From IMG/VR virus record IMGVR_UViG_2541047901_000009: a stretch of 44,558 nucleotides of DNA. One strand, written 5' to 3'. This document shows positions 6,472-43,806 of this stretch, in pieces. Origin of the DNA: a virus. Its lineage: Duplodnaviria > Heunggongvirae > Uroviricota > Caudoviricetes. The position numbers and the translations under genes are program-made. Position 1 is the stretch's first letter; the number at the start of each line of letters is the position of its first letter. A model generated the notes under the pieces. It saw only the letters and a program-made list of their open reading frames with translations, did no database searches and was not told where the DNA came from.

Positions 6472-7635
6472 TCACTCATCATCTTCTGTTTCGTACTCCA
6501 CATCAGAAAGCCTGACCTCAAGCTCTAAGGACGTCGTGAAGCCGCTATTATTCAGAAAATGTGTCACCTTAGTGATTGTCCAGTCCTGCTCGTCTATGAC
6601 GCGCTTAAAGCCTGATACTTTAACCGGTGTTTCCGTGTAAATATCAGCACGACCGGTAGCCAGGCTGATGGAGAACTCCGCAACGCCCCGTTGCAGTTTA
6701 TCCCACTTCGCCTGAGCGGCACGCATGGCCTGTGCTTTCGTGGCATATACCGTGGTCAGGGCAAAAACGTTGTCAGCCTCACCGGCCATGTATTCACCTT
6801 CGCGCGCTTCCGGTACTCTTGGCGCTTTCTTCTGCCTGACCGGTTTTGCTTTCGGGTGCTCCAGTGCGCGCAGGTGTTTTTCTTTCTTTTTGCGTTTCAG
6901 TTTTACCTTCTGCTTTTGCGGCTTCGGGTCTTTGGTGTGTAACCACTTTGCCGTTACGCCGGTATAGGCTCCACGGTCAGCAATCGCAAAATGATGGCGG
7001 TCGCCGTCGCTGCGGGTGATGGTGACCTGCGGGATTTTTTTACCGCTGGCCGTCACCCCCTGCCCCGCTTTGAGAAACAGCAGTTTTCCCATTTTTACCG
7101 ACACCTCACCGCCGTTGCGTTCTGCAAGACGGGTCAGGAATTTCGCATCAGACTCCTGCGACTGGTCGATGTGCGGAATTTTAATTCCGGCCAGTGACGG
7201 AGCGATACTGGCTTCCAGCCTGTTACGGGAGGCAATCGCCTCAACAATCGCACCGAGCGTGGTGTCATGCCAGGAGCCTTCCCGGCGGGAATTGAGCGTC
7301 CCGCGAAAATCTGCACTCCGGGCGCGGATGGTGACCACATCCGGCGCGCCCCGGTGTTCAACCTCATCAACGGTAAATTTCCCTTTGCATACCAGGGCAA
7401 AACCTTTCCAGCCGATATACACCGTCAGGACAGCGCCACGAACCGGCAGCCCGACCTGCCCGTCGGCATCGTTCAGTTCAATATCAAGCTGGTCAGCCTC
7501 AAAGCCCCGGTTATCCGTCAGGGTCATGCTCATCAGACGGTCGCTGATATTGCCGGTAATATCCCTGCTGTCGAGCATCAGCATGTAATCCGGCGTCAGC
7601 GTACTGCCTGCATCAAATGTCAGCGCATCCAGCAT
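6472..7635 (-). CDS. D: P2 gpD tail protein
   Basis: 387 aa, the same length and position as P2 D, between U and ogr. Confidence 0.88.
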   Translation of the reverse strand: MLDALTFDAGSTLTPDYMLMLDSRDITGNISDRLMSMTLTDNRGFEADQLDIELNDADGQVGLPVRGAVLTVYIGWKGFALVCKGKFTVDEVEHRGAPDVVTIRARSADFRGTLNSRREGSWHDTTLGAIVEAIASRNRLEASIAPSLAGIKIPHIDQSQESDAKFLTRLAERNGGEVSVKMGKLLFLKAGQGVTASGKKIPQVTITRSDGDRHHFAIADRGAYTGVTAKWLHTKDPKPQKQKVKLKRKKKEKHLRALEHPKAKPVRQKKAPRVPEAREGEYMAGEADNVFALTTVYATKAQAMRAAQAKWDKLQRGVAEFSISLATGRADIYTETPVKVSGFKRVIDEQDWTITKVTHFLNNSGFTTSLELEVRLSDVEYETEDDE

Positions 7636-8114
7636 TATCCCGCCCCCGTCATACCCGTGAATTTAGTCGCCATACTGCCAGCCTTACCGATGAGCGATTC
7701 CGCCTGTTTACCGATATCGCCATAAAGCGCGGCCAGTGATTCATCAACGCGGGTGAGCGACAGCGTAAAATCAATTTTTCGGGGTGTGCCGTCTGCAAAG
7801 AAAATACTCCCTGTTTCACTCACCCTGCTGATGACATACATGCCGTAAATCATGCCGGTGCCATCCAGCAACGGCCACGCCCGGCCTTCCTCTGCCATCA
7901 GTCTGAGCGTGGTCATCGTCAGCTTTCCGCCGGTCAGTTCTGGATAAAGCACACCGGCAAGCGTAATGTTTTCCTCACCCACACCGAGAAACTGGTAGGC
8001 ATCCCGTTTGCCGATACGGGAATTTGACGGCCAGCGATAATCTGATTCACGCTGCATGGTCTGGTGTGGCAGCGTCTGGCGCATAAAAACAAACATACCT
8101 AACGCGAGCATCAT
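7635..8114 (-). CDS. U: P2 gpU tail protein
   Basis: 159 aa, in the P2 U position and of P2 U length. Confidence 0.85.
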   Translation of the reverse strand: MMLALGMFVFMRQTLPHQTMQRESDYRWPSNSRIGKRDAYQFLGVGEENITLAGVLYPELTGGKLTMTTLRLMAEEGRAWPLLDGTGMIYGMYVISRVSETGSIFFADGTPRKIDFTLSLTRVDESLAALYGDIGKQAESLIGKAGSMATKFTGMTGAG

Positions 8115-8128
8115 TTTTCGTCACCTCC

Positions 8129-10576
8129 TTAACCGTCATGCATCATGCTGGCACGGGCGCGCGCACGTTTATCCCGCTCGTATTTTTCGAGCGCATCCTG
8201 TAACTGGCGGTCAAGCTGTGTCCCCGGCGCAGTACCACCCGTCAGGCTGATGTGATATTCGTTTTTACTCTGGTCCACATAAGAGCGGCCAGCCGGTGCC
8301 GTGACCGGCTGATAAGCTTGATAGCCTGCATAAGAGCTGGTCGCCGGAATATAACCACCGGTGCCATACGTGGCGGCATGAGTTCTGGCGGCGGTCTGGT
8401 CAAGTGTGTCTGACTCTTTGTTGATGACCCCGAGCTTTTCCAGTACCCAGTCAATGCCGCTGCGCAGTTTGTTGAACGCATTAAGCGGCAGCATCAGCGC
8501 GTCAGCCAGTGCCTGCCCGAACATGACGCCCGTGTCACGGCAACGGTTCAGGGTGTCCTGTGTGGCTTTGACCGGGGCAATCAGGTTTTTAAACCACTGC
8601 CACGCGGCCTGTAACTTTTCGCCCAGCCAGTCAAACACCGGCTTAAGTGGCGTGAACAGTTCCCCCACCGGCGCAAATGCCGCTTTCAGCCCTTCCACCA
8701 CACCGCCAAAGAATGCGCTGACAGGCTCCCAGTATTTACGGATAAGCAACGCACCGGCGACAATGGCGGCCACCACGGCCACAACCGGCCAGCTAATCGC
8801 CCCGATGGCCGTCATAACAGCACTGCCAACCGTCGTGAAGATTGCCCCCATTGCGCCTGCTGCCGCGATGATGGCATTGATGCCAGTGATAACCGGCCAG
8901 GCTACGAGGCCAATGGCACCGATGACAGCAGTCAGCGCCAGTGCACCACCGACAATGAGGCCGATGGTTGACGCCAGTGATTTGTTTTTCTGGATCCAGC
9001 CGTCGAGTTTTAACACATACTTTGTGGCCGTCTGCGTGAGCTTACGCAGTGCGCCTTCCTGCTGGTCAAACAGGTCAGTCCCCACCGCCTCATAAGCGGA
9101 CTGAAACTCCTTAAAGTCACCGCCGAGGTTGTCCTGCATGATATTTACCAGCTCGGCGGTCTTCCCGTCTGAGGCTTTAAACGCAGCGGTCAGTTTGTCC
9201 AGCTTTCCAGTTGAGGCGGCAGTCATCAGCACGGCGGCGGCTGAGCTGGCCTCCTCCCCGAAAATAGTTTTCATGTATTCAGCCTGCTGGGCAGTACCGA
9301 GCCGGTTTTTCTCAAAACTGGCCTGCATTTCTTTCAGAATGGTAAATACTGGTCGAGTATTCCCTTTACTGTCTGAGGTTTTCACGCCAAGCTCTTTCAG
9401 TGCATCCCATGCTTTTCCCGTCGGTGCCTGCAGGCGGCTTAACACGGCACGGCTTCCCGTCCCCGCCATTGAACCGGTAATTTTTGCATCATGCAGCGCC
9501 CCGACCATTGCGGCGGTTTCTTCAATGCTGACACCAGCATTTTTTGCCACAGGTGCGGCATAGGTCAGCGCATCGCTCATGCCATCAAAATCGGCGGCGG
9601 TTTTGTTCATCGTCATGGAGAGAACATCCCCGATATGAGCGACCTTATCGTTTGAAAGCTGAAAGGCGGATTTCATCCCCATCAGCAGGGCGGCGTTTTC
9701 TTCCATCGTGCGACGGTTCGCCAGCGCCATATTCAGCGTGACCGGCGTTGCCGCCTGAATGGCATCAACATCCCCACCGGCTTTCGCAATAATAATCTGC
9801 GCACCGGCTGCATCATCTGCCGAGGCTGCGGTATTGTCGCCGAGCTGGCGCGCCTGCTTGCGTAGTGCAGCCATTTCGGCGGAGTCTTTTGCCACACCGA
9901 GCACAGCCTGCAATTCTGAGTTTTTCTGCGCAAACTCATAACCGGGCATCAGCAACTTAACTCCGGCCATCGTTCCCGCAGCAGCAATCCCCACACCGGC
10001 AGCGCCCACTGAGGCCATATTTCCGGCCAGTTCCTTTCCGGCCTGATAACGCTGTTTTACTGCGTTAAGTTTTGCCTGTTGTGCACTGACACGCGCCAGC
10101 GCGTCACGCTGACGGTTAAGCTGTGCGGTGGTTTCACTGATACGGTTTTTCAGTCCCTGCTCATCATGTGCAAGATTGCGGGTATTAATTCCCACAGCGG
10201 CCAGTTCCCGCTGCTGGCGTTTAATGGAATCTGTCAGGCGGTTATATTTCGCCTGTAAGTCCTCCGCCGCACGCTTTGCGGATTCCAGCACTTTCGCCTG
10301 AGCACGGGTCGGACGTTCAGTGTTTTTAAACTGTGTGGCAAGGGCTTCGGCTTCCTGCCGTGCCTTTTCAAGTGCATGACCAGTCACGGCAAGCTGTGCG
10401 CTGGTCTTGCGAAATCCCTCAATACGGGATGCGTGACCGTTCAGCTCGCGCAGTGATTTTTGTGTTTCCCGGATATCCCCCGACAGCGACTTACTCGCTG
10501 TGCGGATGGATTTAAACGGGCGGGATGCCTGGTCAACAGCCCTGAGCAATACCTGTAATTTTACATTGTTACTCAT
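8129..10576 (-). CDS. T: P2 gpT tail tape measure protein
   Basis: 815 aa, Ala/Gly-rich with coiled-coil and hydrophobic segments, located after E/E'. Confidence 0.9.
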   Translation of the reverse strand: MSNNVKLQVLLRAVDQASRPFKSIRTASKSLSGDIRETQKSLRELNGHASRIEGFRKTSAQLAVTGHALEKARQEAEALATQFKNTERPTRAQAKVLESAKRAAEDLQAKYNRLTDSIKRQQRELAAVGINTRNLAHDEQGLKNRISETTAQLNRQRDALARVSAQQAKLNAVKQRYQAGKELAGNMASVGAAGVGIAAAGTMAGVKLLMPGYEFAQKNSELQAVLGVAKDSAEMAALRKQARQLGDNTAASADDAAGAQIIIAKAGGDVDAIQAATPVTLNMALANRRTMEENAALLMGMKSAFQLSNDKVAHIGDVLSMTMNKTAADFDGMSDALTYAAPVAKNAGVSIEETAAMVGALHDAKITGSMAGTGSRAVLSRLQAPTGKAWDALKELGVKTSDSKGNTRPVFTILKEMQASFEKNRLGTAQQAEYMKTIFGEEASSAAAVLMTAASTGKLDKLTAAFKASDGKTAELVNIMQDNLGGDFKEFQSAYEAVGTDLFDQQEGALRKLTQTATKYVLKLDGWIQKNKSLASTIGLIVGGALALTAVIGAIGLVAWPVITGINAIIAAAGAMGAIFTTVGSAVMTAIGAISWPVVAVVAAIVAGALLIRKYWEPVSAFFGGVVEGLKAAFAPVGELFTPLKPVFDWLGEKLQAAWQWFKNLIAPVKATQDTLNRCRDTGVMFGQALADALMLPLNAFNKLRSGIDWVLEKLGVINKESDTLDQTAARTHAATYGTGGYIPATSSYAGYQAYQPVTAPAGRSYVDQSKNEYHISLTGGTAPGTQLDRQLQDALEKYERDKRARARASMMHDG

Positions 10577-13504: not shown

Positions 13505-14089
13505 TTAAAAGAGACCTTCTATATCGACTTCAATGCCCAAATAACGGACTGTGCTTTCCAGTTTCTTATGGCCCAACAGAAGTTGGATCCCCCGGAGACT
13601 CTTGGTTTTCTTGTAGATTAAGTAAGGTTTTGTTCTTCTCATGGAATGTGTGCTGTACAGCGAATCTTCGAGACCAAGCTTTTCTACCCACCCATGAAAA
13701 ATTCGGTTGTATTGCCGGGTTGATATATGGTGGTTAGTTCCGACCCGAGAGCGGAACAGGAAGCCTTTACTATGCCAGTTGCCGAGCTTTATCAATGCAG
13801 TAACCGCTTCCCTTGTCCCTTTGGTTATCTCAAATTGGACAGGGCTGCCGGTTTTCTGTTGCAACACCGTTGCTCTGCTTGAGACAGAACTGCCATATGC
13901 AGCATCTGATACTTTGAGTTTGACCAAATCACAGCCCCGTAGCTTAGTGTCCAAAGCCATGTTGAACAGAGCTAGATCGCGTGTTTTACCTTCCAACTCA
14001 AGTCTAATCCGGATCCCCCAGATATGAGATATCTGAAGTGGCCTTTTTTGACCGATGGTACGGTCTTTATTCCACGGTGACGTTTTCAT
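13505..14089 (-). CDS. Small tyrosine site-specific recombinase, about 194 aa, FimB/FimE-like size with catalytic domain only
   Basis: Catalytic signature in order: R (TKLRGCDLVKL), K, HSMRRT (H-x-x-R) and LLGHKKLESTVRY (H...Y). Start taken at the internal ATG (MKTSPWNK) preceded by AGGAG. Confidence 0.7.
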   Translation of the reverse strand: MKTSPWNKDRTIGQKRPLQISHIWGIRIRLELEGKTRDLALFNMALDTKLRGCDLVKLKVSDAAYGSSVSSRATVLQQKTGSPVQFEITKGTREAVTALIKLGNWHSKGFLFRSRVGTNHHISTRQYNRIFHGWVEKLGLEDSLYSTHSMRRTKPYLIYKKTKSLRGIQLLLGHKKLESTVRYLGIEVDIEGLF

Positions 14090-14195
14090 ATTCAAATCTC
14101 CTGCAATGTGGGAGATTTGAGTATGGTTGTCTCTCAAGAGCGAAAATAAGTCAACTATCACTAGTTGTTGCGCATGTACGTATTCTGTCAATTAA

Positions 14196-15038
14196 TTATT
14201 GACAATCATCAATTCTGGAATGATCAAAATCATCATATCGAATTATAGTCTGGTTGACTGTATCTATTGTTGGTGTCATTTCTGTTATAATATCCTGATA
14301 ACCTAAAGAGTTAAATACATTTACTAAGGCCTCACACCGAAGGGCCGTAGCAATTACAAAATTATAAATTGCCAGCCGTTTATTTTCTTGTTTAACTGCA
14401 AGAATGAATTCGATAGCAGTATTTTCATCACTTTGGATTGCATTATATAGAGATACTATATTTACCATATCATCAGAGAATGTATGTATTGAATCACAAA
14501 GAGGAACGTAATGGGCATGATAGTGTGTTTCCCAGCCAATTAATTCAAAAAGTTTTCTGGTTCCTGGATATTCAGGTGTATTTGGCCACAATCTATTAAA
14601 TAGATCAGTTAGTTCTTTTCCCATGCGAATCCTTTCATTTGCTGCTGGATTAGTCATTCCTTTGGATTTTAAACACTCCAGCCACCGTTTTCCATTACTA
14701 TGAACTAATTTCTTACTAGCCTTGAGTAATGCTTGTGCATTTTCGCCATCATCTATTGCTATATAAAATTGATTGGCAGCCTGTTCTATTATAACCCTAG
14801 CTAATACTTCCGATGCTGAAAAGGCTCCTATATTCAAAGAAGAGATAGCCTGATTACTAAGTTCATTCAGTACATTAAAGTACTGTAAGACCATCAATTT
14901 TTGTTCCACACCCTTTAGGTTGTCTATTTTATTTTTATGCTCCTCAAATTTTGCATGGATATATTTATTTATCGCGGCTATTTTTTTTACATCTTCGTCA
15001 AGATCAAACGGGCAACGTCCAAACAATTCTTTTTTCAT
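14196..15038 (-). CDS. Hypothetical protein, 280 aa, cargo gene directly upstream of the recombinase
   Basis: Clean ORF with AGGAGA five nt upstream of the ATG; its stop lies about 105 bp before the recombinase start codon. No recognisable family. AT-rich. Confidence 0.65.
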   Translation of the reverse strand: MKKELFGRCPFDLDEDVKKIAAINKYIHAKFEEHKNKIDNLKGVEQKLMVLQYFNVLNELSNQAISSLNIGAFSASEVLARVIIEQAANQFYIAIDDGENAQALLKASKKLVHSNGKRWLECLKSKGMTNPAANERIRMGKELTDLFNRLWPNTPEYPGTRKLFELIGWETHYHAHYVPLCDSIHTFSDDMVNIVSLYNAIQSDENTAIEFILAVKQENKRLAIYNFVIATALRCEALVNVFNSLGYQDIITEMTPTIDTVNQTIIRYDDFDHSRIDDCQ

Positions 15039-28113: not shown

Positions 28114-29187
28114 TTACGCTCCCGGCTCTGCGGTCGCCCTGGCCGGTGTGGAGAAATCACCGACCTTAATTTTTTCCACCAGGCAACCGGCGGCGTAGTC
28201 TTCCACCACGTAATCAATATTCATTGACTCGTAGTTCTCCACGCGGTCGAGTTTCGGGTTTTCCACAATCACGCGGCGATGGCTGTCATCCATGTAGTAG
28301 ATGGACAGGTTTTCCAGCTTCGTGATGAGCATCGCATCCGCCGGGAAGTACGGGACGCGTACCGCTGGCAGGTTGCCGATGCGTTTCTGGCTGATGATGA
28401 CGTCAGCGGCCAGCATCTCGCTGTTGTCCTGCTCCTTGTTGACGATGGGGAAATACTTGTCCGCCAGTAGCTGACGCCCCACAATCACCACAAGGTCAGG
28501 GTCTTCCTGATACCACGGTTCAATCAGGTTGTTGGTCGCATCCATCACCAGTGCATCAAGGCTGGCATAATCACCGCCCTTACCCACGCGGATAACCTCA
28601 GAGGTGGTGCGGCCTTCCTCGTCAGTGACCTTGCTCATCACGCGCGCCGGGGCTTCATTGCGGTATTTCTGCAGCCAGCCGACCGCCACATCCTGCAACA
28701 TCGGATTGCTGCTGCGGTCAGAGGTTTCGGCACGCTTCACGCCGTTAAAACCGGCCATGATTAAATCAAGGGACTGGCGTTTGATAATGGCGTTACGGAC
28801 ACGGAGCTGGAAATCCTGATAACGCGCCCACAGGTCAAGCGTTTTGTAGCGGATATAAAAATCGAAGTTAATCTGGTCGCATTCGTACTTACTGGACGCC
28901 AGCTTCGAGAAGTCCTTCGGCTGACGCTCGGTGCCACCGGCGGTGTCGGTGGTGCTGGCGATGGAGCCGGTGACACCAATACCAATTTTTTCCCCTTTCA
29001 TTTCGCTGACCGGCACAATGTTGATGCGGGTCAGAAAGTCAGAGGACTCCTGCATGGTGTTCATCAGGGTCTGGGTGACCGACGGTTCAACGGTGAATTT
29101 TTTCGACACATCACCGGCGTCGATGCCGTTCAGCTCGGCAACACGGGACAGGTAGGCATTAAATTTAAAGCGGGTTTCCTGGCGCAT
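28114..29187 (-). CDS. N: P2 gpN major capsid protein
   Basis: 357 aa, in the P2 N position. Confidence 0.92.
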   Translation of the reverse strand: MRQETRFKFNAYLSRVAELNGIDAGDVSKKFTVEPSVTQTLMNTMQESSDFLTRINIVPVSEMKGEKIGIGVTGSIASTTDTAGGTERQPKDFSKLASSKYECDQINFDFYIRYKTLDLWARYQDFQLRVRNAIIKRQSLDLIMAGFNGVKRAETSDRSSNPMLQDVAVGWLQKYRNEAPARVMSKVTDEEGRTTSEVIRVGKGGDYASLDALVMDATNNLIEPWYQEDPDLVVIVGRQLLADKYFPIVNKEQDNSEMLAADVIISQKRIGNLPAVRVPYFPADAMLITKLENLSIYYMDDSHRRVIVENPKLDRVENYESMNIDYVVEDYAAGCLVEKIKVGDFSTPARATAEPGA

Positions 29188-30100: not shown

Positions 30101-30273
30101 TGTCAGGAGTCCTGAATAGTGATTAGAGGAGTCACATGTCGGCATCAGTTTCCCGACGATGCGCATCCTCCGCCATCAGTCCCGGATGGCTTATCACTGA
30201 CACAACAGCACCTTAGCGAATCGCGGGGCGCGACTCAGTAGCCTTGCCGTGTATTCATCACGGCGAGGTATTC

Positions 30274-32046
30274 ATGACCATCACCACAGACACCACTCTT
30301 TTACACGACCCGCGTCGTCAGGCGGCGCTGCTGTACTGGCAGGGATTTTCCGTGCCGCAGATTGCCGCCATGTTGCAGATGAAACGCCCGACGGTGCAGA
30401 GCTGGAAACAGCGCGACGGCTGGGACAGCGTTGCTCCCATCAGCCGTGTCGAAATGAGTCTGGAAGCGCGGCTGACCCAGCTCATCATCAAACCGCAGAA
30501 AACCGGTGGTGACTTCAAGGAAATTGACCTGCTGGGACGCCAGATTGAACGACTGGCACGGGTAAACCGCTACAGTCAGACCGGCAACGAGGCAGACCTT
30601 AATCCGAACGTCGCTAACCGCAACAAAGGCGGGCGTCGCAAACCGAAAAAGAATTTTTTCAGTGACGAGGCCATCGAAAAGCTGGAGCAGATTTTCTTTG
30701 AGCAGTCTTTCGAATATCAGTTGCACTGGTATCGCGCCGGGCTTGAGCACCGCATCCGCGATATCCTGAAATCCCGCCAGATTGGCGCGACGTTTTATTT
30801 TTCCCGCGAGGCGCTGCTGCGCGCCCTGAAAACCGGTCATAACCAGATTTTTCTGTCGGCCAGTAAAACGCAGGCGTATGTGTTCCGCGAATACATCATC
30901 GCCTTTGCCCGGCTGGTTGACGTTGACCTGACCGGTGACCCGATTGTCCTGGGCAATAACGGCGCAAAACTGATTTTTCTCGGCACCAACTCCAACACCG
31001 CACAGAGCCATAACGGCGACCTGTACGTCGACGAGATTTTCTGGATCCCGAATTTTCAGGTACTGCGTAAGGTGGCATCAGGTATGGCCTCACAGAGTCA
31101 CCTGCGCTCGACCTATTTCTCCACCCCGTCCACGCTGGCGCACGACGCCTACCCGTTCTGGTCGGGTGAACTGTTCAACCGGGGACGCGCCAGCGCCGCC
31201 GAACGCGTGGAAATCGACGTCAGTCATAACGCCCTTGCCGGAGGTCTTCTCTGTGCGGACGGCCAGTGGCGGCAGATTGTCACCATTGAGGACGCCCTGA
31301 AAGGCGGCTGCACGCTGTTCGACATTGAGCAGCTCAAACGTGAAAACAGCGCCGACGATTTTAAAAACCTGTTCATGTGTGAATTTGTTGACGACAAGGC
31401 GTCGGTGTTCCCGTTCGAGGAGCTGCAACGCTGCATGGTCGACACGCTGGAAGAATGGGAAGACTATGCGCCGTTTGCCGCGAATCCGTTCGGCTCCCGC
31501 CCGGTATGGATTGGTTACGACCCGTCACACCGTGGCGACAGCGCCGGATGCGTGGTACTGGCACCGCCGGTGGTGGCCGGTGGCAAATTCAGAATACTTG
31601 AGCGTCACCAGTGGAAAGGCATGGACTTTGCCACTCAGGCGGAATCCATCCGCAAACTCACCGAAAAATACAACGTCGAATACATCGGTATTGATGCCAC
31701 CGGCCTCGGTGTCGGCGTGTTCCAGCTCGTGCGCTCGTTCTATCCCGCCGCGCGCGACATCCGCTACACGCCGGAAATGAAAACCGCAATGGTGCTCAAG
31801 GCCAAAGACGTTATCCGCCGTGGCTGTCTGGAATATGACGTCAGCGCCACCGACATCACCAGCTCGTTTATGGCTATCCGCAAGACCATGACCAGCAGCG
31901 GACGCAGCGCCACCTATGAGGCCAGCCGCAGCGAGGAAGCCAGCCACGCCGACCTCGCCTGGGCGACCATGCACGCCCTGTTAAATGAGCCACTCACCGC
32001 AGGTATCAGCACCCCGCTGACATCCACCATTCTGGAGTTTTACTGA
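30274..32046 (+). CDS. P: P2 gpP terminase large (ATPase) subunit
   Basis: 590 aa from the internal Met (MTITTDTTLL...), divergent from O across the late-promoter region. Confidence 0.92.
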   Translation: MTITTDTTLLHDPRRQAALLYWQGFSVPQIAAMLQMKRPTVQSWKQRDGWDSVAPISRVEMSLEARLTQLIIKPQKTGGDFKEIDLLGRQIERLARVNRYSQTGNEADLNPNVANRNKGGRRKPKKNFFSDEAIEKLEQIFFEQSFEYQLHWYRAGLEHRIRDILKSRQIGATFYFSREALLRALKTGHNQIFLSASKTQAYVFREYIIAFARLVDVDLTGDPIVLGNNGAKLIFLGTNSNTAQSHNGDLYVDEIFWIPNFQVLRKVASGMASQSHLRSTYFSTPSTLAHDAYPFWSGELFNRGRASAAERVEIDVSHNALAGGLLCADGQWRQIVTIEDALKGGCTLFDIEQLKRENSADDFKNLFMCEFVDDKASVFPFEELQRCMVDTLEEWEDYAPFAANPFGSRPVWIGYDPSHRGDSAGCVVLAPPVVAGGKFRILERHQWKGMDFATQAESIRKLTEKYNVEYIGIDATGLGVGVFQLVRSFYPAARDIRYTPEMKTAMVLKAKDVIRRGCLEYDVSATDITSSFMAIRKTMTSSGRSATYEASRSEEASHADLAWATMHALLNEPLTAGISTPLTSTILEFY

Positions 32047-32135
32047 TGAGTGCGTATTACCGTGAAGGAGATCGGTGAGTAACATCGATGGAGATCGGTT
32101 CGTGTCACTTTCACAGAACCGTTTTTAAATTACCT

Positions 32136-32885
32136 TCACTGATCTCCTTCGGTCAACGGTGATTGTATTTTCCGCATTGATTCTCCTTTAAGTTCGATCT
32201 TGATACTGCCATGAACCAGTCGATCTAGGATGGCATCCGCATGTGTGGAGTCTCCGATCATTTTGTACCAGTTTTCCACCGGCAACTGGCTCACTACGAT
32301 GATTGAGCCTCGTTGGTACATCAGATCCACTATTTCCAGCAGGTCGCTACGCTGTTCTGATGAGAGAGGTTCCAGCCCCCAGTCATCCAGAAGCAGCAGA
32401 TCGCTATTATTCAGCCTGGTCAAAAGTTTGCTGTATCTTCCATCAGCATGCCCCTGATAGCACTGTTCCATCAGCGCTTTAAGGCGATAATAGTAGACCT
32501 TGTATCCCTGTCGGCAGGCATTATGACCAAGTGCACATGCCAGGAACGTTTTACCGCTGCCGGTGGCCCCGGTCAGTAAAATATTTTGTTTCAGGGTTAA
32601 CCAGTTTCCCTGACTGAGTGAACGGATGAGGGCCCTGTCCAGCCCTCTATTGTTACGATAATCCAGCTTTGATAACTCAGCATTAAGTCTGAACCGTGCA
32701 TGTTTGATCAGACGCTCTGCCTTCCTGTTTTCACGGCAGGTTAGTTCTTCTGCTGTCAGTAATGACAGGCGTTCTTCGAAGCCCAGCTCCTGGTATGTGC
32801 CCGGCTGAGCAAGTTGCTTTTTAAGCGCATCACGGAAGCCGGTGAGTTTAAGTGCGGTCAGTTGTTCGTAAAGATGATTCATCAT
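32136..32885 (-). CDS. istB: IS21-family helper ATPase IstB
   Basis: 249 aa with Walker A LLTGATGSGKTFLACALG and Walker B LLLLDDWG. Confidence 0.93.
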   Translation of the reverse strand: MMNHLYEQLTALKLTGFRDALKKQLAQPGTYQELGFEERLSLLTAEELTCRENRKAERLIKHARFRLNAELSKLDYRNNRGLDRALIRSLSQGNWLTLKQNILLTGATGSGKTFLACALGHNACRQGYKVYYYRLKALMEQCYQGHADGRYSKLLTRLNNSDLLLLDDWGLEPLSSEQRSDLLEIVDLMYQRGSIIVVSQLPVENWYKMIGDSTHADAILDRLVHGSIKIELKGESMRKIQSPLTEGDQ

Positions 32886-32896
32886 TGGATCCCGTA

Positions 32897-34438
32897 TCAG
32901 TGGTAATACTCACTGCCGCGTACGTTTTCGTGTTCCATCGTGGATAACAGATCTGGTTTTGGATCCTGAACAGGTTGTTTATCCAGACCTTTTTCCAGGA
33001 TCGATTTAATACCTGACAGACGCCATACCTTTGTTTTCAGAGCTCTTGCACATGCTGCATTAAGTCTGGCTTTACTGTATTTTTTATGAAGGTTCAGGAG
33101 TCCAAGGCAGAAGCGATAGCTTTGTTCCGGATGTGGACGAGAGTTCAGTATATGAAGCACATAACTATGAGTTTCACTGCCTATGTGCCCCGCCCATTCC
33201 AGAAGACGCTCTGGCGTCCAGGTGGCATGCTGTCGATGAGCTTCAGGCATGTGCTCGTTGCGGGTACTGTAGCCATAAGTACGCTTGCGCGGGTGCACAG
33301 CAACCTCCTGCCCCTGATTGAAGAGTCTTACCAGTTCTCCGGAGATCCATGCTTCCAGTTGCTGGCCTAACAGCGAACATGGAACCGAGTAGTAATGTTT
33401 GTCGATTTCCACGTGGTAATCGGCATGAACTCTGACTTTCTTCACCAGGGTGTAACTGTAACTGGCTTCAGGAAGAGGCTTCAGTGCGGGTTTATCAAGC
33501 TGGATGAAGAGTTCTGCACGTGAATAACCCAACTTCTGCATTATTTTGTTATTCAGTCTTTCCAGCAACTCCCGAATGCGCTGATTAAGCGATGCAAGGC
33601 TGTAGAAGATCTCATGCCTGATTCGGGCCATGATCCAGCGTTCAACAACCTGAACGCCAACTTCAGCTTTGGCTTTATCTTTCGGTTTACGTGGCCGCGC
33701 AGGCAAAACTGCGACATTATAATGCTCAAGCATCTGCTGGTAGGTAGGGTTAACGTCAGGATCATACTTACATGCCCTGGATGTGGCGCTTTTCAGATTG
33801 TCCGGAACAACAAGTTCAGGAACGCCACCCAACCACTGGAAGCAGCGAACATGACTCATCACCCAGTCTTCAAGCTGCTGAGACCAGGTGGCCTCTGCCC
33901 ATGTGTAACTTGATGCCCCGAGAACAGCTACGATGACCTGAGCAGTTCTTATTTCTCCGGTCTCAGGGTCGGTAACGCCAACGGTAGGTCCACAGTAATC
34001 AACGAAAAGTTTTTCGCCAGCTTTATGTACCTGACGCATTGATGGTGAAGTGGTTTTGAGCCATTCACGGTACATCCGGCAGTAATGGTTATAGCTGTAA
34101 AAACCGCCTGGATTACGCTCACAGTATTCTTCCCAGAGTAGCTGCAGCGTCACGCATTTATTACGCAGTTCCCGGTGTACTGTAGCCCAGTCAGGCAGAG
34201 AGTGCTTCTTCATCTTAACCTGGGTCTGAAGGAACGCATGTTTTAGTTTTGTATCATCCCATCCTGTAGGTAAGGGCCACTGCTTTATGCCAAGTTGAGC
34301 CGCCCGATTAGCATATCTGGATACAACGGAAGGGGAGATTGCAAGACTACGACCAATTTGTCGATGGCTGAGTCCAACACCGTATTTAAGCCTAAGAATT
34401 TCTTTAAGTTTTCTCATAGAAATTGGAACTGTTGGCAT
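32897..34438 (-). CDS. istA: IS21-family transposase IstA
   Basis: 513 aa with an N-terminal HTH and DDE integrase core, immediately upstream of istB. Confidence 0.92.
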   Translation of the reverse strand: MPTVPISMRKLKEILRLKYGVGLSHRQIGRSLAISPSVVSRYANRAAQLGIKQWPLPTGWDDTKLKHAFLQTQVKMKKHSLPDWATVHRELRNKCVTLQLLWEEYCERNPGGFYSYNHYCRMYREWLKTTSPSMRQVHKAGEKLFVDYCGPTVGVTDPETGEIRTAQVIVAVLGASSYTWAEATWSQQLEDWVMSHVRCFQWLGGVPELVVPDNLKSATSRACKYDPDVNPTYQQMLEHYNVAVLPARPRKPKDKAKAEVGVQVVERWIMARIRHEIFYSLASLNQRIRELLERLNNKIMQKLGYSRAELFIQLDKPALKPLPEASYSYTLVKKVRVHADYHVEIDKHYYSVPCSLLGQQLEAWISGELVRLFNQGQEVAVHPRKRTYGYSTRNEHMPEAHRQHATWTPERLLEWAGHIGSETHSYVLHILNSRPHPEQSYRFCLGLLNLHKKYSKARLNAACARALKTKVWRLSGIKSILEKGLDKQPVQDPKPDLLSTMEHENVRGSEYYH

Positions 34439-34632
34439 AGGTATCCTTTACCGGAATGGCAAAAGATACAGATCAACACACCTGTGAAGTTCCAATAACA
34501 TTGATGGAGATCACTGAATAACAAAATGAGTCAAAAGTGATCTCCATCGATGTTATTCAGCGATCTGTTCAAATGTTATTACCCGATCTCGATGGAAGTT
34601 ATTGAGTGATCTCCTTTCATGAAAATACGCAG

Positions 34633-35667
34633 ATGAGCAAGAAAAAAGGGAAAACACCGCAACCTGCGGCAAAAACAATGACTGCCAGCGCCCCGAAAAT
34701 GGAGGCATTCACCTTTGGTGAGCCGGTACCGGTACTCGACCGCCGTGACATTCTGGATTATGTCGAATGCATCAGTAACGGCAGATGGTATGAGCCGCCG
34801 GTCAGCTTTACCGGTCTGGCAAAAAGCCTGCGTGCTGCCGTGCATCACAGCTCACCGATTTACGTCAAACGTAATATTCTGGCTTCAACGTTTATCCCGC
34901 ACCCGTGGCTTTCCCAGCAGGATTTCAGCCGCTTTGTGCTGGATTTTCTGGTGTTCGGTAATGCGTTTCTGGAAAAGCGTTACAGCACCACCGGTAAGGT
35001 CATCAGACTGGAAACCTCACCGGCAAAATATACCCGCCGTGGTGTGGAAGAGGATGTTTACTGGTGGGTGCCGTCCTTCAACGAGCCGACAGCCTTCGCA
35101 CCCGGCTCCGTGTTTCACCTGCTGGAGCCGGATATTAATCAGGAGTTGTACGGCCTGCCAGAATATCTCAGCGCCCTTAACTCTGCCTGGCTGAATGAGT
35201 CGGCCACGCTGTTCCGCCGCAAGTATTACGAAAATGGCGCACATGCCGGATACATCATGTACGTCACCGATGCCGTGCAGGATCGCAACGATATCGAAAT
35301 GCTTCGCGAAAACATGGTTAAGTCGAAAGGCCGCAATAACTTTAAAAATCTGTTTCTCTATGCCCCGCAGGGGAAAGCCGACGGCATTAAAATTATCCCG
35401 CTCAGTGAAGTGGCGACGAAGGACGATTTTTTTAATATCAAAAAAGCCAGCGCCGCTGACCTGCTGGACGCACACCGCATCCCCTTTCAGTTGATGGGCG
35501 GCAAGCCGGAGAACGTCGGGTCGCTGGGTGATATTGAGAAAGTGGCAAAGGTCTTTGTCCGCAATGAGCTTATCCCGCTACAGGACAGGATCCGCGAGAT
35601 AAACGGCTGGCTCGGTCAGGAGGTCATCCGCTTTAAAAACTACTCACTGGACACTGACAACGACTGA
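34633..35667 (+). CDS. Q: P2 gpQ portal protein
   Basis: 344 aa from the ATG at 34633 (MSKKKGKT...). This ATG lies inside the IS21 target-site duplication. Confidence 0.9.
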   Translation: MSKKKGKTPQPAAKTMTASAPKMEAFTFGEPVPVLDRRDILDYVECISNGRWYEPPVSFTGLAKSLRAAVHHSSPIYVKRNILASTFIPHPWLSQQDFSRFVLDFLVFGNAFLEKRYSTTGKVIRLETSPAKYTRRGVEEDVYWWVPSFNEPTAFAPGSVFHLLEPDINQELYGLPEYLSALNSAWLNESATLFRRKYYENGAHAGYIMYVTDAVQDRNDIEMLRENMVKSKGRNNFKNLFLYAPQGKADGIKIIPLSEVATKDDFFNIKKASAADLLDAHRIPFQLMGGKPENVGSLGDIEKVAKVFVRNELIPLQDRIREINGWLGQEVIRFKNYSLDTDND

Positions 35668-35671
35668 ACAT

Positions 35672-35695
35672 CGCCGCCTGCGGGCGGCTTTTTTA
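35672..35695 (+). terminator. Rho-independent terminator after Q
   Basis: Hairpin GCCGCC-tgcg-GGCGGC followed by TTTTTT. Confidence 0.6.
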
Positions 35696-36006: not shown

Positions 36007-37839
36007 TCAAACAGAGCCCTGTTCAAATACAGTATCAAAATATGGTAGGAGAGGATAAGCACACAGAAAGAAAATCAGGATGCATGCATATGTCGTTGTT
36101 TCATCGTAACAAGCATTAGTATATAAATTACCATGTGCTAATTTATGTCTTAAGGTTGCCCCACTCTTTCTATTAAAAAGAACATCGATAGTTAAAACAA
36201 GATTCTTAGAAAAGATACTTTCCAAATCATCTCTGCATTTATCTAGAAGCTGAGAAATACTTGTTGACTCCTCTAATCCCTTATCCAAATATCTAGTAGC
36301 ATCCTTTCCACTAAGCTCATAATAATAACGAACCATACCTTCCATTTGTGGTATTAAAAGATAAGCTGCACTGATGTAATCTCCCTGCCATAATTTGTAA
36401 AAGCCCAAATTAAAAATCTCCCTAAACTCCGGCTTGACAATTGGACTAGTTGTAACTAATTTAACGAATGTTGACAACGTCAAGCCATGTTCTTGAGAAA
36501 GTACATAGCGAGCAGGTTCAAAGACACCGTTTACAAAAATCTTATGAGTAATCTCGAAATTTCTTAGATATTGATCAATAACAACATCATCACTCATATC
36601 TTTTTTATTATTCAACGGCGGGATTGTATATACCTTACGCCCACTCTCATCATTAATTTCTGTTCCAACAAAACTAGAGAATAAACTTTTTTCTGATAAT
36701 CTTAAAACTTGCTCCCTCATGCTTTCAATATTTTCAATCGGTGTTTCACGCATTAAAACTTTGAATATATCGGGCAAAGAACGCCCCGTCAGTTTTTTTT
36801 CACTTTCAGCAACCAAGTCACTAATATCAATAGAATGGCTTAAAGTGACATATTCACTCCTTACTTCTTCTCTCAAATTAGCAAGTTGTTCCTTTAAATC
36901 TTCTATCTGTTGGCTATCACCACCATACTGTCTTAATTCAGAGATAGCTGTTCTTAACCAAGAGATCTTACCCATATTATCAGGTCGATCTGTTGCAACT
37001 TTAATAGTAATATTTGCAGATGCCAGTTTACATCTCTTGGCACGTTCATACTCACCATTTTTTTCATAAATAACTGCACTTGTCATATAAAGTGATTTTA
37101 CAGCATCATAATATTTTTTATCTTTATGCTGCTCAGCCATCTTCTCAGCATTTTCCGCATACTGCAGATTATACCCATCAAAATCACGCACCATAAACCA
37201 AGTCAAATTATTGAAACCTTCAAAGATTAATCTTTCATTTTGAATACTATAAAGAGAATGAATGGCATTTTTAATCGCCATGTTTCCTTCTGATTTTCTA
37301 GGGTAGACCATTTTATTAATGTGCAAAGCCCTAGCAATATAATCACGAGCAAAAATAAAGCAATTTAAATCACTTTCATCCATGCTTTCGTTTTTTATTA
37401 TTAGTTTTTCAATTGCTATATTTAGCATTTCAGCATAGGAATCAATTGCTTTAATTGCCACGTCTTTGTTTTTCCGGTTATTACACCAAACAACATCATA
37501 TATTCTTGATAACAAAAATGGATTGGTTATTTTTTGAGAAACATATAAAAGACAGTCATTCACCTGCTCATCAAAATCTTCAGGCAATATTGATCTTTTA
37601 TTACCCCAAATCATTTGGGGTTCAAATGATGGAGTGTTGTTAACAACTTGCAAATTGAAACTATATAGCATACCAAAAAGAGATGCTAATTTTTTCTCTT
37701 TGGGGTTTCCTGATGATTCAGCAATCCCATCCAGATATTTTTTTATTTTATGTGCATGAAATGTAACTGGTATATGCATAAAAACACTATAATCTAGTGT
37801 TTCAAGCTCTTCCCTTGTAAGAACAAAGATATCATTCAT
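36007..37839 (-). CDS. Hypothetical protein, about 610 aa, at the P2 tin/old cargo position; C-terminal Rx4H motif
   Basis: Long ORF, very AT-rich by eye. Start taken at the ATG for MNDIFVLTREEL, preceded by AAGGTG; the ORF-track start is a TTG at 37941. C-terminal ATLRHKLAHGNLY fits an R-x4-H pattern. No Walker A seen. Confidence 0.65.
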   Translation of the reverse strand: MNDIFVLTREELETLDYSVFMHIPVTFHAHKIKKYLDGIAESSGNPKEKKLASLFGMLYSFNLQVVNNTPSFEPQMIWGNKRSILPEDFDEQVNDCLLYVSQKITNPFLLSRIYDVVWCNNRKNKDVAIKAIDSYAEMLNIAIEKLIIKNESMDESDLNCFIFARDYIARALHINKMVYPRKSEGNMAIKNAIHSLYSIQNERLIFEGFNNLTWFMVRDFDGYNLQYAENAEKMAEQHKDKKYYDAVKSLYMTSAVIYEKNGEYERAKRCKLASANITIKVATDRPDNMGKISWLRTAISELRQYGGDSQQIEDLKEQLANLREEVRSEYVTLSHSIDISDLVAESEKKLTGRSLPDIFKVLMRETPIENIESMREQVLRLSEKSLFSSFVGTEINDESGRKVYTIPPLNNKKDMSDDVVIDQYLRNFEITHKIFVNGVFEPARYVLSQEHGLTLSTFVKLVTTSPIVKPEFREIFNLGFYKLWQGDYISAAYLLIPQMEGMVRYYYELSGKDATRYLDKGLEESTSISQLLDKCRDDLESIFSKNLVLTIDVLFNRKSGATLRHKLAHGNLYTNACYDETTTYACILIFFLCAYPLLPYFDTVFEQGSV

Positions 37840-37955
37840 CGTTTTCACCTTTTTCAGTATAAATTTGCACACATTATTAGCAACATAATTATCAATAGTT
37901 AACACATGTAGATAAACAGCAATTTTACTATTATGCAACAAATTAAATCAGATGT

Positions 37956-42796: not shown

Positions 42797-43806
42797 ATGG
42801 CAATCAAAAAACTCGATGATGGTCGATATGAAGTGGACATCCGCCCTACTGGACGTAATGGAAAACGCATCCGTAGGAAGTTTGATAAGAAAAGCGAAGC
42901 TGTCGCTTTCGAGAAATACACGTTGTACAACCACCACAATAAAGAATGGCTATCAAAACCAACAGACAAGCGACGTCTGTCGGAGCTGACACAGATCTGG
43001 TGGGATTTAAAGGGTAAACACGAAGAGCATGGGAAATCTAATCTTGGAAAAATTGAAATCTTCACAAAAATAACGAATAACCCATGCGCATTTCAAATTA
43101 CGAAATCGCTTATCAGCCAGTACTGCGCCACCCGAAGAAGTCAGGGTATTAAACCTTCGAGTATCAATCGTGATTTAACATGTATTAGCGGCATGTTTAC
43201 AGCCCTGATTGAAGCGGAGTTATTCTTTGGTGAGCACCCTATCAGAGGGACAAAAAGGCTTAAGGAGGAAAAACCAGACACAGGCTATCTCACGCAGGAA
43301 GAAATTGCCTTACTGCTTGCTGCTCTTGACGGCGACAACAAAAAGATTGCGATTCTTTGCCTGAGTACTGGAGCACGTTGGGGAGAAGCAGCTCGTTTGA
43401 AAGCAGAAAATATCATCCATAACCGCGTCACGTTTGTTAAAACGAAAACAAACCACGCACCGTCCCGATCTCAGAGGCTGTTGCCAAAATGATCGCGGAT
43501 AACAAACGAGGTTTTTTATTCCCTGATGCTGATTACCCTCGCTTCAGACGAACAATGAAAGCAATAAAACCGGATTTGCCAATGGGGCAAGCCACACATG
43601 CACTAAGGCACAGCTTTGCCACTCATTTCATGATTAATGGAGGAAGTATTATCACGCTACAACGGATACTAGGTCACACGCGGATTGAGCAAACTATGGT
43701 TTACGCTCATTTTGCGCCAGAGTACCTTCAGGACGCCATTTCTCTTAATCCGCTAAGAGGTGGTACTGAGGCCGAGAGTGTCCACACAGTGTCCACAGTA
43801 GAGTAA
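42797..43806 (+). pseudogene. int: P2 integrase (tyrosine recombinase) interrupted by a frameshift
   Basis: Two consecutive ORFs in different frames (42797..43492, 231 aa; 43489..43806, 105 aa) together cover an integrase of about 337 aa. The C-terminal part retains HALRHSFATH...LGHTRIEQTMVYAH. The frame break lies in an A/C-rich run around 43445-43456. Confidence 0.7.

Follow-up and report, generated by a model that had tools for sequence, protein, structure and literature searches.

Members of the IS21 family insert with no strong sequence specificity, and DNA that is prone to kinking can be a hotspot for them; the IstB protein bends its target DNA, and repeats of 5 bp are common (PMC11208146). 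A 5-bp duplication has been reported for ISEc12, whose insertion in tssM marks clade C of ST131 (PMC10711316). Another described system that is relevant here is the P-Q operon of phage P2. In P2 and in the P2-like prophage of E. coli S88, genes P and Q are annotated as overlapping by 1 nt, and the uninterrupted junction reads TAC-TGATGAG-CAAG. The P2 counterpart of the terminator at the end of the operon carries the annotation "tQ; putative rho-independent terminator for P operon". Here we describe a copy of ISEc12 that lies exactly at this gene junction.

The window, that is, the whole stretch of DNA analysed (44,558 nucleotides, IMG/VR record IMGVR_UViG_2541047901_000009), contains a P2-like prophage at 20595-44558. 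Gene P (30274-32046, + strand) encodes the terminase large/ATPase subunit of 590 aa (Pfam Terminase_6N 6e-60, Terminase_6C 3e-47 and the gpP-like Terminase_5 2e-27), and at the DNA level it matches the terminase gene of S88 (annotated at L001 10824-12596) at 100%. Gene Q (34633-35667, + strand) is an intact ORF for a portal protein of 344 aa (Pfam Phage_portal 3e-14), all but one residue of which is identical to P2 gpQ (343/344). A terminator scan places tQ, the intrinsic terminator closing the operon, at 35673-35694 (+ strand), where GCCGCCTGCGGGCGGC is followed by TTTTTT. With a terminase large subunit, a portal, the TGATG overlap and tQ at its end, the locus is a P2-like (Peduovirus) P-Q operon. 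The region upstream of P (30167-30273) is 100% identical to that of the S88 prophage, and the Ogr-type pattern TGT-N12-ACA has no exact match in it.

Between the two genes lies ISEc12 (32051-34631, 2581 bp), with its genes on the - strand, antisense to P and Q. The element is 100% identical over its full length to copies annotated "IS21-like element ISEc12", and 1773 E. coli records match it with at least 80% coverage; the name rests on the copies labelled by RefSeq "IS21-like element ISEc12 family". Its boundaries could be fixed independently of the prophage, as hundreds of copies in E. coli and on plasmids, in contexts unrelated to one another, are 100% identical to query positions 1-2581 and stop exactly there. 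Read directly, the left side runs GGAGTTTTAC TGATGAG and then enters the element at TGCGTATTACC, and the right side leaves it at GAAAATACGCA and continues as GATGAG CAAGAAAAAAGG. The tips are TG...CA, and the terminal inverted repeat is perfect over 8 bp (TGCGTATT/AATACGCA). The istB-side end (IRR) faces P and the istA-side end (IRL) faces Q.

The assignment of the element to the IS21 family, made in the initial annotation, is borne out by its genes. The gene istA (32897-34438, - strand) encodes a DDE transposase of 513 aa with an rve domain (2.7e-10) and a Mu-transposase C domain (Mu-transpos_C_2, 2.6e-16), corresponding to RefSeq WP_001298859.1 on identical copies. It lies upstream of istB, as in the family gene order; the 249-aa ORF of istB (32136-32885, - strand) encodes the AAA+ helper ATPase (Pfam IstB_IS21, PF01695, 2.2e-67; WP_001016257.1 on identical copies). 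RefSeq places istB on those copies at the equivalent of 32136-32882. Both ORFs are intact and identical to those of widespread copies. A repeat search found about two copies of a unit containing GATCTCC/GGAGATC at the IRR end (32065-32117), and at the IRL end (34494-34616) three direct copies 23 bp apart (34539-34612) and one inverted copy (34494-34523). Multiple terminal repeats are a pattern typical of the IS21 family. The locus thus shows istA with istB, TG...CA inverted repeats with sub-terminal repeats, and a short target duplication within the 4-8 bp, often 5 bp, of the family.

The duplicated sequence is GATGAG, present at 32045-32050 on the left and, by direct reading and alignment, at 34632-34637 on the right. 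When the element and one hexamer are deleted, the resulting 1200-nt junction is 100% identical, without gaps, to E. coli S88, MS7163 and N53, and it has 97.8% identity to phage P2. Because the S88 and P2 junctions hold a single TGATGAG, the hexamers on either side of the element stem from duplication of the target, as had been proposed from the sequence of this locus. We looked for an uninterrupted junction lacking GATGAG or holding two copies of it and found none; uninterrupted junctions of this type occur in at least 1539 of 5426 complete E. coli genomes. At 11 distinct sites ISEc12 duplications measured 5 bp (seven sites), 6 bp (two) and 7 bp (two), so the 6 bp seen here falls inside the range of the element.

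The remaining statements of the initial annotation about the junction hold as well: the interval 32041-34641 was right to the base, the left hexamer completes the P stop (TGA, 32044-32046), and the right one supplies the Q start (ATG, 34633-34635). The original junction was accordingly an overlapping stop and start, TGATGAG, with one A common to the TGA of P and the ATG of Q.

Taken as a whole, we put a probability of roughly 0.85 on the reading that a resident ISEc12 transposed into the P-Q operon of the P2-like prophage next to yegR, at a junction that it prefers, and uncoupled Q. In this event the IstA transposase and its AAA+ helper IstB would have made strand-transfer cuts staggered by 6 bp across GATGAG, a hexamer that takes in the GA of the P stop (T-GA) and the entire Q start (ATG). 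Gap repair would then have duplicated the hexamer, the left copy restoring TGA and the right copy ATG. Since the duplicated hexamer spans the stop and start, preservation of both ORFs would be a geometric by-product and would call for no special mechanism.

The prophage of the window and that of S88 show 0 mismatches and differ only in where ISEc12 lies and in an additional IS110-family insertion in the window. In S88, ISEc12 lies within the capsid gene N between two copies of a duplicated CCAGT, and nothing is inserted at P/Q; with flanks otherwise identical, the P/Q insertion in the window is a separate and recent event on that background. The differing positions in otherwise identical prophages imply that ISEc12 has recently been active in this lineage. 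The prophage also bears other damage. A 4-bp deletion relative to intact int breaks its int gene into two parts, 42797-43492 and 43489-43806, and the identical sequence in S88 and MS7163 is annotated as frameshifted. The IS110-family element (about 24325-25762; transposase NF033542 at 9e-99) separates the lysozyme gene from a lysA-like gene in the lysis region. With int split, this element present and ISEc12 in the P-Q operon, the locus does not have the make-up of a functional, inducible P2-like prophage and, judged by these lesions, is an already defective (cryptic) one.

The earlier view that both genes remain intact stands for the coding sequences, P with 590 aa and Q at its full 344 aa, but not for the signals on which Q depended. 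In an uninterrupted junction the native Shine-Dalgarno sequence of Q, GGAG (32034-32037, + strand), precedes the ATG by 8 nt; here it has stayed in the 3'-terminal part of P, and 2.6 kb now separate it from the Q start. Pairing with the 3' end of 16S rRNA amounts to -5.9 kcal/mol at the native junction versus 0 in the IS context, where the 25 nt preceding Q show no anti-Shine-Dalgarno complementarity. The stop/start coupling of Q to P has also been lost through the insertion. A consensus scan of the + strand of the element found no sigma-70-like promoter facing Q, and inspection by eye of its last 150 bp for a promoter found poor hexamers only. Terminator-like hairpins on the + strand are weak and no more frequent than in shuffled sequence, and a strong intrinsic terminator that would block read-through was accordingly rejected. 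Stretches with more C than G lie directly after the P stop. Given the loss of the Shine-Dalgarno sequence and of coupling, the 2.6 kb of antisense, untranslated IS sequence and the absence of a detected outward promoter, Q expression is predicted to be strongly reduced.

Untranslated RNA of 2.6 kb is a classical substrate for Rho, and amber mutations, and their suppression by P4 Psu, are well known to reveal polarity in the late operons of P2. With the IS RNA now lying between Q and a putative late promoter upstream of P, Rho-dependent polarity and the missing ribosome-binding site would together cut portal synthesis strongly, and the shortage of portal would block head assembly even if the prophage were induced. 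The lysogen itself would probably pay no cost, since it does not express the late genes and its prophage is cryptic in any case.

Some features of the locus might nevertheless allow Q to be made in adequate amounts, leaving the insertion neutral for the phage, either through read-through of the P transcript across the element or through translation from a GTG at 34606. The + strand of the element has no convincing intrinsic terminator. An in-frame ORF (34606-35667) is open from this IS-borne GTG, adding nine residues to Q, and a weak GGAAG lies 7 nt upstream of it (-3.4 kcal/mol). The region around the Q ATG is A-rich and weakly structured, with a mean unpaired probability of 0.68, and some Shine-Dalgarno-independent initiation might occur there. 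In addition, the same insertion is found in otherwise intact-looking prophages of several lineages, and ISEc12 is present in viable lambdoid phages. Against this stand the loss of the native Shine-Dalgarno sequence and coupling, the lack of a Q-facing IS promoter in the scan, and the polarity expected of such a transcript. Moreover, ISEc12 was absent from all of the roughly 100 sequenced isolates of P2-like phages, and exact-pattern scans of viral_contigs, genome_contigs and metagenome_contigs did not find the junction. We regard adequate expression as unlikely, if the strongest of the alternatives, and favor a strongly reduced Q. In this prophage the question carries little weight, as int is frameshifted and a second IS is present.

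The same insertion is not confined to the window. ISEc12 lies at the same P/Q junction and in the same orientation in five other complete E. coli genomes: in pflA-adjacent prophages of MS7163 and O25:H4 18044, and in yegR-adjacent prophages of OkiPb01678, OkiPb01712 and 98201. The junctions can be recognised by the k-mers TTTTACTGATGAGTGCGTATTACC and ATACGCAGATGAGCAAGAAAAAAGG, with ATACGCAATGAGCAAG as the variant for a 5-bp duplication. A search of plasmids for the junction gave no hits, and no ecoli_genomes record is 100% identical to the junctions of the window. The duplication in 98201 is 5 bp, ATGAG. Pairs of these prophages have 19-55 differences per 2 kb of flank versus 0-3 in the 2581-bp element (binomial p 1e-5 to 1e-18), and the IS haplotypes among the prophages bearing the element at P/Q are not all alike. 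The diverged flanks, the two attachment sites and the one 5-bp duplication suggest a recurrent ISEc12 hotspot, and from the shared site and orientation on different P2-like backgrounds we infer that the junction is a preferred target of the element. Recombination among P2-like prophages, or gene conversion homogenising the IS, could however give a false appearance of independent events. The +45 allele (A), common to four other IS-bearing prophages, was considered as a marker of shared origin and rejected as uninformative, because 594 of 1542 records hold the exact 99-nt haplotype, nearly all of them with uninterrupted junctions. We found no description of a P/Q insertion site in the literature on ISEc12, on insertion sequences in P2-like prophages or on IS21 target choice.

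In the window itself, the element could alternatively derive from a second P2-like prophage in the same cell that already carried ISEc12 at P/Q, copied across by homologous recombination or gene conversion. MS7163 offers such a setting, holding both the S88-type yegR prophage and a pflA prophage whose P/Q-borne element is of the same haplotype as that of the window. An identical 6-bp duplication, as copying would produce, is furthermore common to four backgrounds, whereas ISEc12 duplications otherwise vary between 5 and 7 bp. The flanks in the window are, on the other hand, of the S88 empty-site haplotype, and the first differences from MS7163 come only 50 bp away from the element on the P side and 27 bp away on the Q side, so that copying would require one crossover in each of these short intervals (about 50 and about 27 bp); and the 5-bp duplication in 98201 marks at least one separate transposition into the site. 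Copying is hence improbable next to direct transposition. That the hexamers are a chance repeat, or that the placement of the element is an assembly artefact, is rejected as highly improbable: multi-copy elements carry a general risk of being misplaced in assemblies, but the empty-site match is exact and both the left and right junctions occur in five independently finished genomes.

If transposition recurs at this junction, the likely cause is that the A/T-tract-rich sequence TTTTACTGATGAGCAAGAAAAAAGGGAAAA, with a TTTT run before and an AAAAAA run after GATGAG, would be easily kinked, as in the structure-based selectivity described for IstB. A target consensus or extreme AT-richness was rejected as the cause: the 11 ISEc12 sites show no clear consensus, and the junction is AT-rich, in the 4th percentile of 30-nt windows in P-Q, yet is not the AT-richest spot. 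A bolder view is that the P/Q boundary is a structure-determined, orientation-specific ISEc12 hotspot at which the ORFs are kept and the portal is silenced, so that prophages are recurrently disarmed across E. coli lineages. This is speculative and, in our estimate, doubtful. Were it true, silencing would act through polarity together with the missing ribosome-binding site, with coding capacity kept, and would in principle be reversible through precise excision across the 6-bp repeat.

The insertion in itself is an ordinary, textbook event, involving a known IS, a known prophage and a duplication that happens to span the overlap of stop and start. Its sole unusual and new aspect is the presence of the same element at the same spot in other P2-like prophages, and its wider reach is limited to this repeated use of one junction in diverged prophages. 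It nonetheless provides a clean example of an intact ORF that is not an intact gene, since the ribosome-binding site and translational coupling are lost, and an example of IS elements adding to prophage decay. If the target preference is real, P/Q would be a natural and easily cloned hotspot for the study of structure-based site selection by IstB of the IS21 family.

Among known systems, structure-based target choice in IS21, in which IstB bends or kinks DNA, could plausibly explain why a junction flanked by A tracts is used repeatedly in the absence of a consensus; that work was performed in vitro with IS5376/IS21, on a system other than ISEc12 and P/Q DNA (PMC11208146). Annotated ISEc12 copies on E. 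coli chromosomes and F-type plasmids share the 2581-bp sequence, the istA-istB layout, the TG/CA tips, the sub-terminal repeats and short duplications with the copy in the window, which differs from them in splitting an operon at a gene boundary without breaking any ORF and in having a duplication of 6 bp rather than the more usual 5. The P-Q operon of phage P2 (NC_001895) resembles the locus in nucleotide identity across the junction (97.8%), in the TGATG overlap, the Shine-Dalgarno sequence and tQ, and in gpQ (343/344); unlike P2, the prophage of the window is interrupted by an IS, has a frameshifted int and an IS110-family insertion, and carries different cargo genes. Closest of all is the yegR-side P2-like prophage of S88 and MS7163, which matches that of the window with 0 mismatches across about 24 kb and shares its attachment site and int frameshift; it differs in lacking the IS110-family element and in carrying ISEc12 in capsid gene N (CCAGT), with an uninterrupted P/Q junction.

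The window carries an IS21-family insertion sequence between the genes for the P2-type large terminase subunit (P) and the portal protein (Q). Read directly from the sequence, the left joint is ...CTGGAGTTTTAC-TGATGAG|TGCGTATTACCG... and the right joint is ...GAAAATACGCA|GATGAG-CAAGAAAAAAGG..., with 2581 bp (32051–34631; first bases TGCGTATT, last bases AATACGCA) between the GATGAG copies at 32045–32050 and 34632–34637. The plus-strand P frame (30244 or 30274 to 32046; Pfam Terminase_6N, 6e-60; Terminase_6C, 3e-47; gpP-like Terminase_5, 2e-27) ends in the TGA at 32044–32046, and the plus-strand Q frame (34633–35667; Phage_portal, 3e-14) opens with the ATG at 34633. The coordinates and sequence statements of the initial annotation are all correct by this reading. 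The element encodes, on the minus strand, an IstB (32136–32885; Pfam, 2.2e-67) and an IstA-type DDE transposase (32897–34438; Pfam rve and Mu-transpos_C_2). Both ist genes run opposite to P and Q; P is next to the istB-side end (IRR) and Q next to the istA-side end (IRL). A repeat search revealed three direct copies 23 bp apart plus one inverted copy at the istA end and about two repeats at the istB end, and multiple sub-terminal repeats of this kind are typical of the IS21 family. The full 2581 bp are 100% identical, end to end, to copies labelled “IS21-like element ISEc12” by RefSeq. Coverage reaches at least 80% in 1773 E. coli and 609 plasmid records, and the copies stand in a wide variety of unrelated settings on chromosomes and plasmids, so the boundaries of the element are fixed independently of the flanking repeat.

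The flanking hexamers had been proposed to be a target duplication that restores both the P stop and the Q start. Deleting the IS and one hexamer rebuilt the empty site as a 1200-nt query, which aligned at 100% and without gaps to E. coli S88, MS7163 and N53, and at about 98% identity to phage P2 and its relatives. In both S88 and P2 the alignment contains a single GATGAG, within ...TTTTACTGATGAGCAAG..., and a one-base P/Q overlap is annotated; the intact P2 junction thus carries TGATGAG, as the proposal predicts. Uninterrupted junctions of the same type are present in at least 1539 complete E. coli genomes. The duplications at 11 distinct ISEc12 sites that we extracted are 5 bp (seven sites), 6 bp (two) or 7 bp (two) long, and a 5-bp duplication accompanies the ISEc12 insertion in tssM of ST131 (PMC10711316), placing a 6-bp duplication inside the normal range of the element. 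These comparisons show that GATGAG is a true target duplication. Because the duplication spans the stop and start codons, their regeneration is its direct consequence and involves no new mechanism.

With either IS/flank junction as the query, the same five finished genomes were found to carry ISEc12 at P/Q in the same orientation. The prophage adjoins pflA in MS7163 and O25:H4 18044 and yegR in OkiPb01678 and 98201; for OkiPb01712 the yegR site is assumed by analogy with OkiPb01678. Among the four genomes whose joints were compared, the GATGAG duplication is identical in MS7163, 18044 and OkiPb01678, while 98201 has the same left joint but a 5-bp duplication, its right copy being ATGAG. ISEc12 also lies within Q in the same orientation 75 bp into the gene in DETEC-S565 (20377–22957 of locus L007; duplication CATTCAC) and 699 bp into it in S6 (20996–23576 of locus L006; duplication AAGGC). 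At all four distinct ISEc12 sites in P2-like prophages (P/Q, Q+75, Q+699 and capsid gene N), the orientation of the ist genes is opposite to that of the interrupted gene; four sites are too few to tell an orientation bias from chance.

Compared pairwise, the junction-bearing prophages differ at 19–55 positions in 2 kb of flank, whereas their 2581-bp IS copies differ at only 0–3 (binomial p, 1e-5 to 1e-18). The IS haplotypes are not all the same: one is common to the window and MS7163, OkiPb01678 carries 110A, 18044 carries 110A and 755T, and 98201 carries 110A, 755T and 987C. The IS flanks in the window are those of the S88 empty-site haplotype, and they differ from the flanks of all the other IS-bearing prophages within about 50 bp of the IS in P and 27–45 bp in Q. 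The +45 allele, common to the other four, was rejected as a linkage marker, being present in 594 records with nearly all junctions uninterrupted. An alternative is that one IS with a short flanking segment spread by recombination among P2-like prophages and that the IS copies were homogenized, which would require very short conversion tracts. On the simplest reading, ISEc12 has inserted here independently at least twice, and probably more often, at positions no more than 1 bp apart, which would make the junction a hotspot.

The basis of such a hotspot may be structural. No sequence consensus was found among the 11 ISEc12 sites, and the GC content of the junction falls in the 4th percentile of 30-nt windows in P-Q, yet is not the minimum. 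According to published structural work (PMC11208146), IS21 has no strong sequence specificity and IstB decamers give the target a kinked S-shape; the same paper cites proposals that DNA prone to kinking becomes a hotspot. We conjecture that the A/T tracts around GATGAG (TTTTAC...CAAGAAAAAAGGGAAAA) could fit this idea. An antisense terminator-like hairpin, TGCCGCAGGTTGCGGTG followed by a T-rich run (34655–34671, minus strand), lies beside the insertion site, 20–40 bp inside the Q start, and is native P2 sequence.

Two IS-related differences aside, window positions 20595–44558 show zero mismatches to the yegR-adjacent P2-like prophage of E. coli S88. The yegR prophages of S88 and MS7163 carry ISEc12 in N with a CCAGT duplication (6742–9322 of the S88 locus, L001; counterpart in the MS7163 locus, L009) and have an uninterrupted P/Q junction, whereas in the window N is whole (corresponding site, 28773–28777) and ISEc12 is at P/Q instead. 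Two ISEc12 positions on a background without SNPs imply that the element has been recently active in this lineage. A second IS of about 1.44 kb (~24325–25762), of the IS110 family and absent from the S88 prophage, occupies a 14-bp gap between the lysozyme and lysA-like genes; its transposase frame (24597–25616, minus strand; NF033542, 9e-99) is of the RNA-guided, bridge-RNA type. This element is 90.5% identical to ISEc66, and 99.7%-identical copies lie elsewhere between lambdoid ‘minor tail protein L’ and ‘C40 peptidase’ genes; none was found at the same P2 site in other genomes of the E. coli collection. The integrase gene has lost 4 bp (AAAC) that the intact gene of OkiPb01678 retains and is thereby split into 42797–43492 and 43489–43806, and the identical sequence in S88 and MS7163 is annotated as frameshifted or a pseudogene. 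Given the split integrase and the extra IS110-family insertion, the prophage is cryptic whatever the state of Q. The P/Q insertion should make no selective difference to the lysogen.

Other cargo includes a small alarmone synthetase-like protein with a RelA/SpoT domain (21277–22377, plus strand; Pfam RelA_SpoT, 2e-21; PADLOC PDC-S33, 1e-16) and, just downstream of Q, a DUF7380 protein (36007–37941, minus strand; PADLOC PDC-S39, 1e-84). Both genes occupy known variable spots of P2-like phages and are candidate anti-phage defence genes. A tyrosine recombinase reduced to its C-terminal half (228 aa) and an adjacent DUF5677 protein are encoded between the genes for tail fibre and tail sheath (13505–15038, minus strand); the same pair is annotated in the MS7163 prophages as a partial integrase and DUF5677.

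The claim that both genes remain intact holds for their coding sequences but not for Q as an expression unit. P is unaltered up to its stop codon, and Q is full length and identical to P2 gpQ at 343 of 344 residues. Natively, the Shine-Dalgarno GGAG lies inside the P end, 8 nt upstream of the Q ATG, and the stop/start overlap provides translational coupling of Q to P. Both are lost to Q here: GGAG stays with P (32034–32037), and the 25-nt stretch that Q now has upstream (IS end ...TCTCCTTTCATGAAAATACGCAG) is not complementary to the 3′ end of 16S rRNA, with a duplex energy of 0 kcal/mol compared with −5.9 kcal/mol at the native junction. Scans of the plus strand of the IS found no promoter and no strong intrinsic terminator. 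An outward −35 element of IS21 was reportedly located at the istB-side end by Reimmann and colleagues in 1989, and that end points away from Q here. Consequently, transcription of Q can only come from read-through that starts at a promoter upstream of P and crosses the 2.6 kb of IS, which is antisense and untranslated. Long untranslated stretches are classical substrates of Rho-dependent polarity, and polarity in the P2 late operons is well documented through polar amber mutations suppressed by P4 Psu. Some residual expression may persist: an in-frame GTG at 34606, preceded by a weak GGAAG (−3.4 kcal/mol), could yield a Q protein predicted to be 9 residues longer, a 5-codon mini-ORF (ATG at 34619 to TGA at 34636) terminates on the Q ATG, and the Q start region is predicted to be mostly unpaired. 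Overall, Q output is probably strongly reduced.

The order terminase, istB, istA, portal is already present in the RefSeq annotation of five genomes. Our literature search (ISEc12, IS elements in P2-like prophages, IS21 target choice) found no published description of ISEc12 at P/Q. Searches for the IS/flank junction in viral contigs, GTDB-representative contigs, JGI metagenome contigs and plasmids gave no match, and a phage genome search found no ISEc12 in isolated P2-like phages. Phage records PV340549–PV340553 (PhiR12_1, _2, _2_star and _4), of lambdoid size (52–54 kb), contain a complete ISEc12 beside tail fibre assembly genes, essentially identical to the copy in the window (reported 100.0%); the element can therefore be carried by phages whose genomes are deposited as isolates. 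The insertion is real, its initial interpretation was correct, and the event is an ordinary one. The repeated, orientation-constant use of the P/Q junction is a modest curiosity that can be tested experimentally; the insertion itself places a known element, ISEc12, in a known target, the P2 P-Q operon.
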